A DNA stretch of 64,000 nt, taken from the sequence record OZ335962.1; one strand, written 5' to 3'. The notes under the pieces were generated by a model. The model ran no database searches. It saw only the letters and a program-made list of their open reading frames with translations, and was not told where the DNA came from. This DNA comes from a phage. Below, piece after piece: positions 3,214 to 50,735 of the stretch. The stretch's first letter is position 1; each line of letters starts with the position of its first letter. The translations under genes were made by a program, and so were the position numbers.

Positions 3214-3291
3214 TTTATTCTCCTTTGTTTGTGTAAGATAATACTATCACAAAGGAACCATACTGTAAACAACTTTGTGCAGTCTTTGGAA

Positions 3292-3318
3292 AATAAAAAA
3301 GGACTCCCGAAGGAGTCC
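3292..3318 (-). terminator. rho-independent terminator
   Basis: On the minus strand, GGACUCC-UUCG-GGAGUCC hairpin followed by UUUUUUAUUU. Identical to the terminator after soc. Confidence 0.7.
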
Positions 3319-3323
3319 TCAAC

Positions 3324-3500
3324 TTATGCTTTCTGCTTACCAAAACGAGAAGCATCATCTCGAAGAACCGCACGTGCTCGGCGCATGATCTTCTCAACAG
3401 TTTGATTGATACGAGAGTTCGACCCACGCTTGTAACCAGCGCGTTTAGAATCACCAACTTTCTTTTCAACTGCTTTCTTTGCTTTAGCTTGTTTTGCCAT
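3324..3500 (-). CDS. small lysine/arginine-rich basic protein (58 aa)
   Basis: ATG at 3500..3498 (MAKQAKAKKAVEKK...), followed by a strong intrinsic terminator. The track ORF has a 14-codon N-terminal extension that I trimmed. Confidence 0.5.
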   Translation of the reverse strand: MAKQAKAKKAVEKKVGDSKRAGYKRGSNSRINQTVEKIMRRARAVLRDDASRFGKQKA

Positions 3501-3896
3501 TATAAATTCTCTTTTAAATGAAAATGCAGGACTTATTGGCATTGCCTGCGAAAGCCCTCAAGGGGGTACTTAGGTTTTGAGTATTTACCGACAGGATAAC
3601 CATAAACCCGTCATCATACTTATAACTCTTATCTGTTGCACACCGTTAGCTTAAAGGTTCCGGGTTCGATTTCTCGAGGATAAGATATATACTGATGGAT
3701 ATATAGGCCTTGAGGCGTACTCCCGATTGGCCATCACCTCGGGGTAGCATGCACTTGCCGCTATAAGAATAACATTCAAGAGGTACACCGTAAAACTGCC
3801 GGGGTCTTAAAACTATAATGATTCGCAAATCATTAATCAGACAGTTCGACGGCTCCTCGATTTTAGCTCACACTAAGGCAGTGAATCTCCAATAAA

Positions 3897-4145
3897 TTAC
3901 TTCAGTGTTACCACAAAGTGACGAACTGCTTTTCGTGCGGCAGAAGCCAGAGGCTTAGCATACTTAAGTTCATCTTTTTCCTGAAGCTCAGCAGCTAATG
4001 CAGTTTGAGCAGGATTCAGATGTTTGAAATAACGCAGGATTTCAAGAGCTTCGGCTTCAACATCAATAGATGCGCCATAGTTTTCGTGACCATTATTCCA
4101 TGCGTTTCGTTGCAGTTCAAGAGCGTGTTGTAATTGTTTAATCAT
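3897..4145 (-). CDS. rIII: rIII lysis-inhibition accessory protein
   Basis: 82 aa, same length as T4 RIII; sits between gene 31 and the 30.x genes as in T4. Confidence 0.8.
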   Translation of the reverse strand: MIKQLQHALELQRNAWNNGHENYGASIDVEAEALEILRYFKHLNPAQTALAAELQEKDELKYAKPLASAARKAVRHFVVTLK

Positions 4146-4292: not shown

Positions 4293-4628
4293 TCACTTAT
4301 AAAGACACGGAATAGCTTTATAGTGACAGGTTACGAATTTTTGTTTAATTTCTTTTGGCTGCTTAAGACCCAGAGCTACAAGAGGATGCGGAACGTTTCG
4401 AATTTGACCAACTGGAAGAGAAGTCAAATCACCAACTTCGCAGAAACCTTCAGGAACATCAGGACCAACAGAGTGAATTACACACAGTTCAGGAACTTCA
4501 CCTTGAACACGTTTACCGATAATAAGTCCTGATTCTGTAACTTCTTCATCACCGGCTTGTGCAGGTTCAGAAACTAAAATAACATATTCACCGACAGCAC
4601 GAATTGGTAGCTGTTGTACTTCAGACAT
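4293..4628 (-). CDS. 31: gp31 co-chaperonin (GroES analogue for capsid folding)
   Basis: 111 aa beginning [30 protein letters not shown], as I recall T4 gp31. A MotA-box-like TGCTTTA plus -10 TATTAT lies upstream at about 4640..4678. Confidence 0.9.
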
Positions 4629-33607: not shown

Positions 33608-33690
33608 AGACCTTCCCCTTATGTTTCTGTTTGCGATTAGATTCTTTAAACGCTTTCTTCTTATCCTTATGGACAGAAGCTTTATTAAAA

Positions 33691-33909
33691 TTATGTTTTG
33701 CGACTAAATTGTTCATAGTGCTGAATTACCTCTCTTAAACAATTGCACGTGAATGAAAACTTTTTAGCTACACCACATTCAAATATATGTTCTCTTAAAT
33801 CACGTGTATCAGTATATCCCATCTCAACGATAAAATGCCGTATTAGATTTTTATCTTTATCATTGAGAGAATTAAAATAATCGGATTTTGAATTAATTTC
33901 CCTGGCCAA
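33691..33909 (-). CDS. hypothetical early protein
   Basis: 72-aa ORF. Confidence 0.4.
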   Translation of the reverse strand: MAREINSKSDYFNSLNDKDKNLIRHFIVEMGYTDTRDLREHIFECGVAKKFSFTCNCLREVIQHYEQFSRKT

Positions 33910-36018: not shown

Positions 36019-36048
36019 TATAGTACCATAAAGCTTTATGCTTGTAAA
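36019..36048 (-). promoter_or_regulatory. early promoter; copy 2 of the repeated promoter module
   Basis: Minus strand GTTTACAAGCATAAAGCTTTATGGTACTAT; the spacer contains a perfect 14-bp palindrome. Confidence 0.55.
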
Positions 36049-36071
36049 CCGTTTTGTGAAAAAATTTTGAA

Positions 36072-36102
36072 ATAAAAAAAAGGGAGAGCCTCGGCTCTCC
36101 CT
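36072..36102 (-). terminator. rho-independent terminator
   Basis: Minus strand GGGAGAGCC-GAG-GCUCUCCC followed by a U8 run. Confidence 0.7.
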
Positions 36103-36106
36103 AAAA

Positions 36107-36256
36107 TTACTGCATGACTGTGATAACTGTCATGATAACACGTTGAATTCCGAACGCAAGAAGACCTCCTGCTACGGCAGGAACAACACCTAAACCCGCC
36201 AGTAAAATGCCACCAGATACTAATGCAGCGCTTGTAATACCTATGAATGGACTCAT
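36107..36256 (-). CDS. small hydrophobic membrane protein (49 aa)
   Basis: MSPFIGITSAALVSGGILLAGLGVVPAVAGGLLAFGIQRVIMTVITVMQ; its ATG overlaps the gp52 TGA. Below the ORF-track size cutoff. Confidence 0.45.
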   Translation of the reverse strand: MSPFIGITSAALVSGGILLAGLGVVPAVAGGLLAFGIQRVIMTVITVMQ

Positions 36257-50240: not shown

Positions 50241-50515
50241 TAAATTTTCCTCGCTAAATCGCGAATTTGACCTACAGTATAATCTTGGATATAAACTTTA
50301 TTAATGGGCTCATCAATAAATTTTGCCATAGATTCAATATCTTTTTGTATCTCTTCAAGACTGTATACTATCTTTGAAGCTTTTTCGCGAATAGTAACAT
50401 TATCAGGTCCTGGATTTTCTTGAATGACAGCTTTAACGTTTGCCATAAGAGATTTAAATTGGTACCAACTTAATTCAATCATTAATAACCGCCTTATAAA
50501 GATGGCTAATTTCAC
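50240..50515 (-). CDS. hypothetical early protein
   Basis: 91-aa ORF. Confidence 0.4.
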   Translation of the reverse strand: MKLAIFIRRLLMIELSWYQFKSLMANVKAVIQENPGPDNVTIREKASKIVYSLEEIQKDIESMAKFIDEPINKVYIQDYTVGQIRDLARKI

Positions 50516-50735
50516 CTAAAACATAATCACTGATTGTAACAGTTTTCACTTCACCGCAAAAGAATTCTAATGCAATCAAATCTCGTTCAATTTCTTTCAA
50601 TTGAAGCATTAACTTGCCTGATTCAATTTTCACGTTTTTGCGATTTTTACTATAAGCTATTTCATAAATTTCGCTCACTTTATCTTGAAGCAGATAAAAC
50701 TGGTCTTTAGTTATTTCCACGAATAGCTTCCTCAA
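50475..50735 (-). CDS. hypothetical early protein
   Basis: 86-aa ORF. Confidence 0.4.
   Translation of the reverse strand: MRKLFVEITKDQFYLLQDKVSEIYEIAYSKNRKNVKIESGKLMLQLKEIERDLIALEFFCGEVKTVTISDYVLGEISHLYKAVIND

Follow-up and report, generated by a model that had tools for sequence, protein, structure and literature searches.

A 147-nt structured RNA at the center of the mosaic gap between rIII and 30.9 in T4-like phages

The rIII-30.9 gap and its modules

In the 64-kb stretch of phage DNA analyzed here (the window), rIII and 30.9 are separated by a gap of 393 nt (3504-3896), and both genes, together with gene 31 and all others around the gap, are encoded on the minus strand. Shigella phage vB_SsoM_113, a Tequatrovirus, matches the gap region at 100% identity. 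The gap is framed by the following features:

3299-3320: strong intrinsic terminator after 30.9
3324-3503, minus strand: gene for T4 gp30.9, a small basic protein of 59 codons (phrog_1427)
3897-4145, minus strand: rIII (phrog_1457, E 5e-44)
4293-4628, minus strand: gene 31

As a functional clue, gp30.9 offered a PHROG of unknown function, no Pfam match, and no PDB relative. An earlier note on this DNA had described the interval as ORF-free and more GC-rich than its surroundings, and both descriptions were borne out. Positions 3543-3896 form the longest stretch of the window lying in no ATG-initiated ORF of at least 50 aa, and the GC content of the gap is 42.2% compared with 35.6% for the window (top 4% of 393-nt segments), rising to 46.3% (top 2%) in a core of 147 nt at the gap center. 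The single TTG-initiated ORF that the note had listed (3646-3828) is present; however, no frame remained open across homologues, stops occurring in all three sense frames in some of them, and no Pfam or PHROG match was found. A conserved protein-coding ORF, which the same note had named as one refuting case, was looked for and not recovered. Predicted folding stability was unremarkable (z-score -1.9 for the gap and -1.5 for the core). The case for a structured RNA rests on comparative evidence.

On that evidence, the gap is a mosaic of RNA-level modules with the 147-nt RNA as its centerpiece:

3526-3549, minus strand: stem-loop GCAGG...CCUGC, followed by a U-rich run, the 30.9 ribosome-binding region, and the AUG at 3503
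3551-3569, minus strand: module Y, hairpin GUACCCCCUUGAGGGCUUU
3572-3619, minus strand: module Z, H-type pseudoknot, also in T4
3619-3765, minus strand: core structured RNA of 147 nt, covered over its full length by covariance model R1
3816-3835, minus strand: hairpin UAAUGAUU-UGCG-AAUCAUUA, followed by UAGUUUU
3858-3890, minus strand: module X, GGAGAUUCACUGCCUUAGUGUGAGCUAAAAUCG, conserved across genera as judged by eye, its position relative to the core varying

Module Z opens with a hairpin of 6 to 9 bp, whose stem S1 pairs GACGGG (3607-3612) with CCUGUC (3590-3595), continues with GUUAAAUA...CAAAAC, and ends in the partner bases of the hairpin loop, such that loop GGUU (3598-3601) pairs with AACC (3573-3576) past the A-rich linker GGUAAAUACUCAAA. 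Loop and partner covary among homologues (GUGAG/CUCAC, GUAGU/ACUAC, AGGUU/AACCU, UGGUU/AACCA, and GAUGG/CCAUC). Overall, 83% of cells were paired compared with 35 to 55% in slid controls, and five of the six S2 pairs showed compensatory changes. This clear covariation between a loop and a downstream strand supports an H-type pseudoknot. The layout of hairpin, UUAAAUA, and pseudoknot also recalls the pistol ribozyme. The Rfam pistol model gave no match and the elements that follow Z vary by genus, and we treat the likeness as generic to pseudoknots with A-rich linkers. In Jiaodavirus, ~300 nt separate Z from the next start codon.

Module Y occurs once in the 64-kb window, where 0.02 occurrences are expected, and was found in 17 retrieved loci, never more than once in each, either beside the core or in the same gap wherever this was checked; depending on the genus, it is located upstream or downstream of the core. 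Stem-loops analogous to that at 3526-3549 precede 30.9 in other genera. Its match to the DUF2815 RNA leader (E 2.4) was at chance level.

The hairpin at 3816-3835, which the earlier note had quoted, does exist on the minus strand but is peripheral and not the main structured element. Among the aligned phages it was restricted to the T4 type (window, T4, and T2), being absent from close relatives such as BP32, from pSe_SNUABM_01, and from other genera, and the terminator scan did not flag it; it is possibly a weak terminator or a stabilizer for rIII. Scanning the window gap for promoters and terminators revealed no convincing promoter and no terminator on the transcribed strand, so the core is not bracketed by such signals. 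In T4, early, middle, and late promoters all drive transcription of rIII (PMC9409239). The strand that carries the core RNA is the sense strand of rIII and 30.9, hence any rIII read-through transcript contains it, and in the window the core would be transcribed by such read-through if the weak AU-rich hairpin at 3816-3835 does not terminate.

Fold of the core RNA and its comparative support

In a cmsearch with R1, the core scored 174.7 bits (E 1e-42) and was the sole copy in the window. It folds into seven helices (P1, P1b, and P2-P6), in a numbering that places RNA position n at window coordinate 3766 - n, and its parts are as follows:

3760-3764 with 3622-3626, minus strand: P1 (RNA 2-6 with 140-144), AUAGC with GUUAU, closing the whole domain
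3757-3759 with 3706-3708, minus strand: P1b (RNA 7-9 with 58-60), GGC with GCC
3749-3756 opposite 3709-3714, minus strand: internal loop between P1b and P2, 5' side AAGUGCAU, facing CUCAAG
3715-3748, minus strand: P2, long hairpin arm (RNA 18-29 with 36-51), GCUACCCCGAGG (3737-3748) with CCAAUCGGGAGUACGC (3715-3730)
3731-3736, minus strand: P2 loop UGAUGG, 5' half of the kissing loop
3686-3705, minus strand: P3, hairpin UAUAUAU-loop-GUAUAUA (RNA 61-67 with 74-80)
3693-3698, minus strand: P3 loop CCAUCA, 3' half of the kissing loop
3627-3685, minus strand: arm D, in which P4 encloses P5, P6, loop L6, and junction GCAACA
3679-3685 with 3627-3633, minus strand: P4 (RNA 81-87 with 133-139)
3666-3677, minus strand: P5, UCGA-GAAA-UCGA (RNA 89-92 with 97-100)
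3661-3665 with 3640-3645, minus strand: P6, ACCCG with CGGUGU (RNA 101-105 with 121-126)
3646-3660, minus strand: loop L6, GAACCUUUAAGCUAA
3634-3639, minus strand: junction GCAACA

The first structure, comprising 40 pairs, was obtained with RNAalifold and refined by hand on an unfitted MAFFT alignment of 21 sequences. In this set, 96.4% of pair cells were standard compared with 27 to 44% when the 3' partners were slid, 23 of the 40 pairs were compensatory, and none of 500 shuffles reached any of these measures. A second set of 33 distinct homologues was aligned with R1 (alignment A4), with P1b and a kissing loop added, and here 98.3% of cells were paired over 49 pairs, 35 of them compensatory. 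A4 is fitted to the model and leans to nested helices, whereas neither the MAFFT counts nor the kissing loop depends on this fitting. The kissing loop, a 6-bp interaction between the P2 and P3 loops that R1 does not contain, was found through mutual information of unpaired columns (A4 columns 33-38 with 74-79) and is 95.5% paired, with compensatory changes in four of its six pairs. Every homologue keeps its P2 and P3 loops complementary, and six different sequence versions of this pairing occur (UGAUGG/CCAUCA, CGAUGG/CCAUCG, CUAUGG/CCAUAG, CAAUGA/UCAUUG, UUGUAUU/AAUACAA, and UGCAUU/AAUGCA).

Compensatory changes were distributed over the whole fold, affecting all five pairs of P1, four of seven in P3, five of seven in P4, all four in P5, and three of five in P6 (the latter seen in L046, L100, and L106), while 9 of the 12 P2 pairs changed on both sides. 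In P1b, C-G is exchanged for U-A in L100 and for U-G in L072. More divergent copies were recovered with R1, namely those of EcS1, the IMG/VR sequences L012, L106, L039, and L046, L100 (identical to Yersinia phage fHe-Yen9-01), Yersinia phage JC221, and Slopekvirus phiEap-3; these added P1b, the three compensatory P6 pairs, and the kissing loop. EcS1, L100, JC221, and phiEap-3 keep all helices through dozens of compensatory changes, and they also keep the near-invariant loop bases. The signal is specific to one strand, since 98.7% of cells were paired in the sense (minus) orientation compared with 93.7% in the antisense, and 70 G-U cells as well as the GAAA loop of P5 fit the minus strand only.

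Outside the stems, near-invariant bases are concentrated at three places: the internal loop between P1b and P2, the flanks of L6, and the GCAACA junction. The 5' side of the internal loop is invariant in alignment A2 except for its fourth base (U, G, or A among homologues), leaving a near-invariant AAGNGCAU, and the six-base strand facing it starts with CU in all homologues but one. Flanks GA-CC and GCUAA of L6 were unvarying in every homologue aligned, and in GCAACA the fourth-from-last base varies once. Peripheral stems and loops, including the tips of P2, P3, and P5, vary freely yet remain paired. P1, P1b, P3, and P4 abut in a four-way junction with zero linker bases. The kissing of the P2 and P3 loops sets arms B and C side by side, which implies that P1 would stack on P2 and P4 on P3. 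A covariation search for partners of L6 and of the internal loop allowed no contact to be inferred, as these bases hardly vary, and matches to a base-pairing target of L6 in the window were at chance level. In its conservation pattern, the core matches riboswitch aptamers and ribozymes and not base-pairing sRNAs.

Taken together, we regard the core as almost certainly a selected, functional structured RNA. The suggestion of the earlier note that the interval might hold a structured noncoding RNA is therefore strongly supported by a fold with compensatory changes, although the element in question (3619-3765) was not one that it had singled out. Its two other suggestions fared worse. A decayed gene is not supported, given the lack of a conserved frame or protein-family match and the compensatory substitutions in the stems, nor is an origin or other DNA-level region, given the G-U pairs, GNRA loop, and kissing loop, which fit a minus-strand RNA only.

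Distribution and genomic contexts

When the 396-nt interval 3501-3896 was compared by blastn with 50,697 phage records, its parts differed in distribution, T4 and T2 matching the two ends only. Positions ~3624-3760 were 94 to 96% identical in Klebsiella, Enterobacter, and Kosakonia phages (Jiaodavirus and Kanagawavirus) and 86% identical in a Serratia phage, and in the matches retrieved from other genera the core lay between rIII and 30.9 homologues. Searched alone by blastn, the core matched 411 phage records with Enterobacterales hosts, including Klebsiella (161), Escherichia (131), Shigella (27), Enterobacter (27), and Yersinia (18), the other host genera including Salmonella, Citrobacter, and Serratia. 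It occupied one place per record in all but one record, this place being the rIII-30.9 site where shown, with 30.9 as the next gene in ~95% of cases and in all rIII-context copies examined. Matches were also found in 14 metagenome and ~20 IMG/VR contigs, most of them of T4-like size where long enough to judge. Blastn against 5,426 E. coli genomes gave no match, and two degenerate patterns searched in 185,579 bacterial and archaeal species genomes gave zero and one matches, the one, in a Rubrivivax metagenome-assembled genome, failing R1. A further pattern, GGCAAGNGCATG...GGCCTAT, returned mostly chance matches in IMG/VR but yielded the divergent L039 and L046 copies.

The core occurs as clean presence/absence alleles. 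The T4 allele is a clean indel in which GAAU stands in place of a 156-nt block (3616-3771), and T2, BP32, and pSe_SNUABM_01 are likewise Tequatrovirus members without the core. Of roughly 700 Tequatrovirus genomes, ~180 have the cassette. Its presence also varies among Slopekvirus relatives. Absence from T4, T2, and many relatives indicates that it is dispensable under laboratory conditions. Alignment with T4 and T2, which the earlier note had proposed as a check, was uninformative for the core since both lack it, and the informative comparisons came from other genera. Nucleotide identities to the window were:

Jiaodavirus (Merci): core 95.6%, rIII 74%, gene 31 67%, 30.9 76%
Kanagawavirus (Kosakonia 305): core 93.4%, rIII 68%, gene 31 77%, 30.9 88%
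Serratia 4S: core 85.4%, rIII 69%, gene 31 69%, 30.9 78%
EcS1: core 70.0%, rIII 73%, gene 31 66%, 30.9 76%

Part of the high between-genus identity of the core could reflect recent horizontal spread and not constraint.

Module order within the gap is genus dependent, with 100 to 190 nt of modules separating P1 from the 30.9 start:

Tequatrovirus: rIII, X, hairpin, core, Z, Y, stem-loop, 30.9
Jiaodavirus: rIII, Z, X, core, Y, stem-loop, 30.9
Kanagawavirus and Karamvirus: rIII, small GNRA hairpin, core, Z, Y
EcS1 and L012: rIII, Y, core, Z

In T4, X, the hairpin, Z, Y, the stem-loop, and 30.9 are all retained in the absence of the core. Since what separates the core from 30.9 varies among genera, a conserved expression platform is lacking.

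A second, divergent subfamily (~20 records) is located in the gap between uvsY and uvsW. In JC221, phiEap-3, and the IMG/VR contig L046, the RNA follows uvsY.-2 and a tiny ORF. The 170 to 350 nt downstream of uvsY-context copies hold no annotated or 30.9-like ORF, only unannotated ORFs of 36 to 52 aa, and end at a strong bidirectional intrinsic terminator facing uvsW.1. JC221 and phiEap-3 share in this stretch a Y-like hairpin and a second conserved block. Slopekvirus phiEap-3 has a perfect T4 late-promoter box, TATAAATA, which stops 5 nt short of P1 and is the sole one in the 3.1-kb locus; it would place a late start near locus position 1500, and a terminator lies ~200 nt downstream. Promoter-like near-matches occupy the same place in JC221 (CATAAATA) and L046 (TATAAT). 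Judged by its sequence, the uvsY-context element resembles a dedicated RNA gene, with transcription that would start at P1.

Interpretation and relation to known RNAs

The explanation that we consider probable, with moderate confidence, is that the core is an independently folding, self-contained RNA module carried in an accessory cassette. The near-invariant bases would build a specific tertiary pocket or surface, through which the RNA may bind a partner, either protein or small ligand, whose conservation extends over Enterobacterales hosts or T4-like phages, or may act catalytically, and it would not serve as a cis switch for the next gene. The cassette is presumed to be gained and lost by recombination at two T4-type intergenic sites, rIII-30.9 and uvsY-uvsW. 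A self-contained RNA is favored by the lack of an expression platform, the copies without a downstream 30.9-like gene, and the promoter-like box. More specifically, it may tentatively be read as a partner-binding noncoding RNA as opposed to a cis regulator or ribozyme, a reading for which the odds are close to even but fall somewhat short. It is conceivable, if rather doubtful, that with the core a new functional class of RNA, restricted to Enterobacterales T4-like phages, has its first member, acting as a new self-cleaving ribozyme, as an aptamer for a small molecule (e.g., a host immune or stress signal), or as a decoy neutralizing a conserved host factor or defense system. Carriage as a movable accessory cassette would then account for its presence in some phages and its absence from T4.

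Two rival explanations draw on the same conservation pattern. A self-cleaving ribozyme or RNA-processing element is suggested by analogy with catalytic cores, in which junction and loop bases hardly vary and peripheral stems do, and by the four-way junction, the inter-arm clamp, and the intercistronic position. The junction would place the internal loop of arm B against the conserved elements of the neighboring arm, as in the hairpin and twister-sister ribozymes, and cleavage would sever rIII from 30.9 within the transcript or free a stable RNA. However, most small self-cleaving ribozymes are smaller than 147 nt, no Rfam ribozyme matched the 166-nt query at E up to 10, and in the uvsY context there is no downstream part needing separation, making this explanation unlikely. 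Alternatively, the core could be a cis-acting riboswitch or attenuator that responds to a metabolite or protein by controlling either read-through into 30.9 or its translation. Purine, lysine, and cobalamin riboswitch aptamers combine a multi-helix junction, a kissing loop, and near-invariant junction bases, as does the core, and 30.9, which follows every rIII-context copy examined, is itself conserved (76 to 88% nucleotide identity). The absence of a conserved expression platform argues against such control, as do T4, which retains 30.9 and its leader without the core, and the uvsY copies, in which a promoter-like box immediately precedes the RNA and no 30.9-like gene follows; we consider a riboswitch improbable.

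The distribution data bear on a selfish or hitch-hiking cassette, which would pass from one co-infecting T4-like phage to another by recombining at conserved modules in its flanks; high identity would then record recent transfer, and the fold would serve to maintain the cassette itself or be of no use to the phage. Presence/absence alleles with sharp, recurrent junctions, two genomic sites, a position relative to X, Y, and Z that differs among genera, and a core 93 to 96% identical between genera that are otherwise 67 to 77% identical in rIII and gene 31 are all in keeping with it, and shuffling of cassettes through recombination has been documented for T4-type genomes (PMC2839356, PMC4122927). 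However, divergent copies keep all helices and near-invariant bases, which shows long-term selection on the fold, no mobility gene is adjacent, and the flanks do not fit the definition of PeSL cassettes, so that a purely selfish origin appears distinctly improbable. The protein-coding, decayed-gene, and DNA-site readings are largely refuted and retain hardly any credibility. Several GenBank records annotate hypothetical proteins over the core (e.g., ACG-C40_0208a and Merci gp117), and T4 has an origin near uvsY, the second site, which would favor a replication origin or recombination hotspot. Nevertheless, a stop interrupts each frame in one homologue or another, Pfam and PHROG are silent, substitutions are compensatory and not synonymous, G-U pairs are strand specific, and a loop-loop interaction is meaningless in duplex DNA.

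T-even phages are the best-studied bacterial viruses, and their relatives on Klebsiella, Enterobacter, and E. coli are in wide use as therapeutic candidates. A 147-nt RNA with a fold at the level of riboswitches and ribozymes, more conserved than the neighboring proteins, has apparently been overlooked; the type phages T4 and T2 are without it, and annotators recorded a hypothetical protein, a misnamed enzyme, or nothing. Searches of the literature by topic, locus name, and the core's own sequence strings turned up no account of it. Its function is open to direct testing, since carriers and non-carriers occur naturally among near-identical genomes. Should the RNA prove catalytic, or bind a host factor or signal, an RNA-based accessory function would be added to T4 biology, and a new family would join the short list of complex-folded orphan RNAs.

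Comparison with known families identified no counterpart. None of the 4227 models of Rfam 15, among them all curated families of riboswitches, ribozymes, and phage RNAs, matched 3504-3896 in a 1-kb query at E up to 10, a check that the earlier note had proposed, nor the 166-nt core query at the same threshold, the flanks giving chance-level matches only. The whole window had no gathering-level match, and an Atu_C8 match at 3285-3368 corresponds to the terminator after 30.9. ARAGORN found no tRNA or tmRNA gene, and likenesses to motifs of RNase P RNA, tmRNA PK1, twister-sister, and pistol were not confirmed by the Rfam models. The T4 small stable RNAs rnaC and rnaD (species 1 and 2) are, like the core, T-even phage RNAs of comparable size (~120 to 140 nt), annotated in the T4 record only as small stable RNAs with no function given. 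Unlike the core, they belong to the tRNA cluster, with a tRNA-like arm at the end of rnaC, and T4 has both without having the core; R1 scored at most 5.4 bits in the 5-kb T4 tRNA region with filters off, and homology was rejected, the two being unrelated to the core in sequence and structure.

Among the modules, Z resembles the pseudoknot of T4 gene 32 mRNA, which is an H-type pseudoknot in an intercistronic leader followed by A/U-rich sequence, and differs from it in sequence, location, and the absence of a known binding protein. The core cassette is reminiscent of PeSL (Arbiol 2010, Comeau 2014), small intergenic modules tied to cassette insertion, deletion, and replacement. PeSLs, however, combine a sigma-70-type early promoter with a GGGG...CCCC stem-loop in many copies per genome, repeated in hyperplastic regions, whereas the gap has no promoter-like site, no terminator on the transcribed strand, and a single Y in 64 kb. 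Hairpin and twister-sister ribozymes share with the core a four-way junction that sets the conserved loops of neighboring arms side by side; they differ in that no Rfam model connects them with it, and the likeness in short motifs, no more than a lead, was not confirmed by the models. With its closing P1, near-invariant junction, Watson-Crick kissing loop, and variable peripheral stems, the core resembles purine, lysine, and cobalamin aptamers in design, and its length is within the ~70 to 200 nt of riboswitch aptamers. It thus has the complex conserved aptamer with near-invariant junction bases that is generic to riboswitches, but not their Rfam similarity, nor a consistent position in the 5' UTR of one gene class with an overlapping expression platform. 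The core is an RNA family outside Rfam whose general kind is known, that of the complex-folded noncoding RNAs of phages and bacteria.

Conserved modules flanking the core RNA

Three further conserved RNA modules, X, Y, and Z, flank the core, the 147-nt four-way-junction RNA, in the gap between rIII and 30.9. Together with the gene for the small basic protein gp30.9, they are positioned as follows.

3858-3890, minus strand: module X, GGWGAU..GCUACC..AGUGC..GCUAAAAU, conserved across genera
3572-3619, minus strand: module Z, a conserved pseudoknot of the H type whose linker, GUUAAAUA...CAAAAC, is A-rich
3551-3569, minus strand: module Y, a GUACCC..GGGCUU hairpin, conserved across genera and occurring once in the 64-kb window
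3324-3542, minus strand: gp30.9, whose frame contains one ATG at 3542 and another at 3503

Modules X and Y accompany the core, including at the uvsY-uvsW site of Yersinia phage JC221, and candidate identities for module X are a small hairpin and a MotA-type promoter. In module Z, the loop covaries with its downstream partner across genera. This pseudoknot is also present in T4, and lies downstream of the core in Tequatrovirus and upstream of it in Jiaodavirus.

A second block at the uvsY-uvsW site

Downstream of the divergent core found in the uvsY-uvsW gap, and ahead of the terminator, a second conserved non-coding block was found in two phages.

phiEap-3 (Slopekvirus) locus L138, 1650-1855: second block
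JC221 locus L027, 1253-1600: second block

Its sequence in these loci, GGCGUAMUCUUUUGCG..CCGAU..UUUAC..UCGGCG..GGUGAUUGAUAA..UACCUUCGA, may represent an additional domain of a putative late ncRNA of ~350 nt.

Annotation of the RNA region and its neighborhood

The homologous RNA region is inconsistently annotated among GenBank records, being left unannotated in many, labeled a hypothetical protein in some (ACG-C40_0208a, Merci gp117), and a '1,4-alpha-glucan branching enzyme' in several; these protein labels are probably annotation artefacts. For gp30.9, the 58-aa form starting at the downstream ATG is that annotated in T4 and T2; some records carry a 72-aa form that would be read across the leader stem-loop. 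This strongly basic protein is well conserved, with 76 to 88% nucleotide identity between genera, and no relative was found in Pfam or PDB.

Neither tRNAs nor Rfam matches at gathering level were detected in the entire window. A match to the Rhizobiales sRNA Atu_C8 at 3285-3368 on the minus strand (31 bits, E 4e-4; below the gathering score of 50) was rejected, its score being due to the GC-rich terminator hairpin 3' of 30.9. Further stretches lacking an ATG-initiated ORF of at least 50 aa, each 220 to 285 nt, occur at 33608-33892, 36032-36252, and 50483-50706.

The insertion junction in T2

In T2, which lacks the core, an unrelated 44-nt sequence, UACUAUCAUGCGUCAGAAAAGUGUUAUCUGUGUAAGUCUUGGUG, sits exactly at the core insertion junction (L124, locus position about 560-603). 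The junction is a recurrent exchange point.
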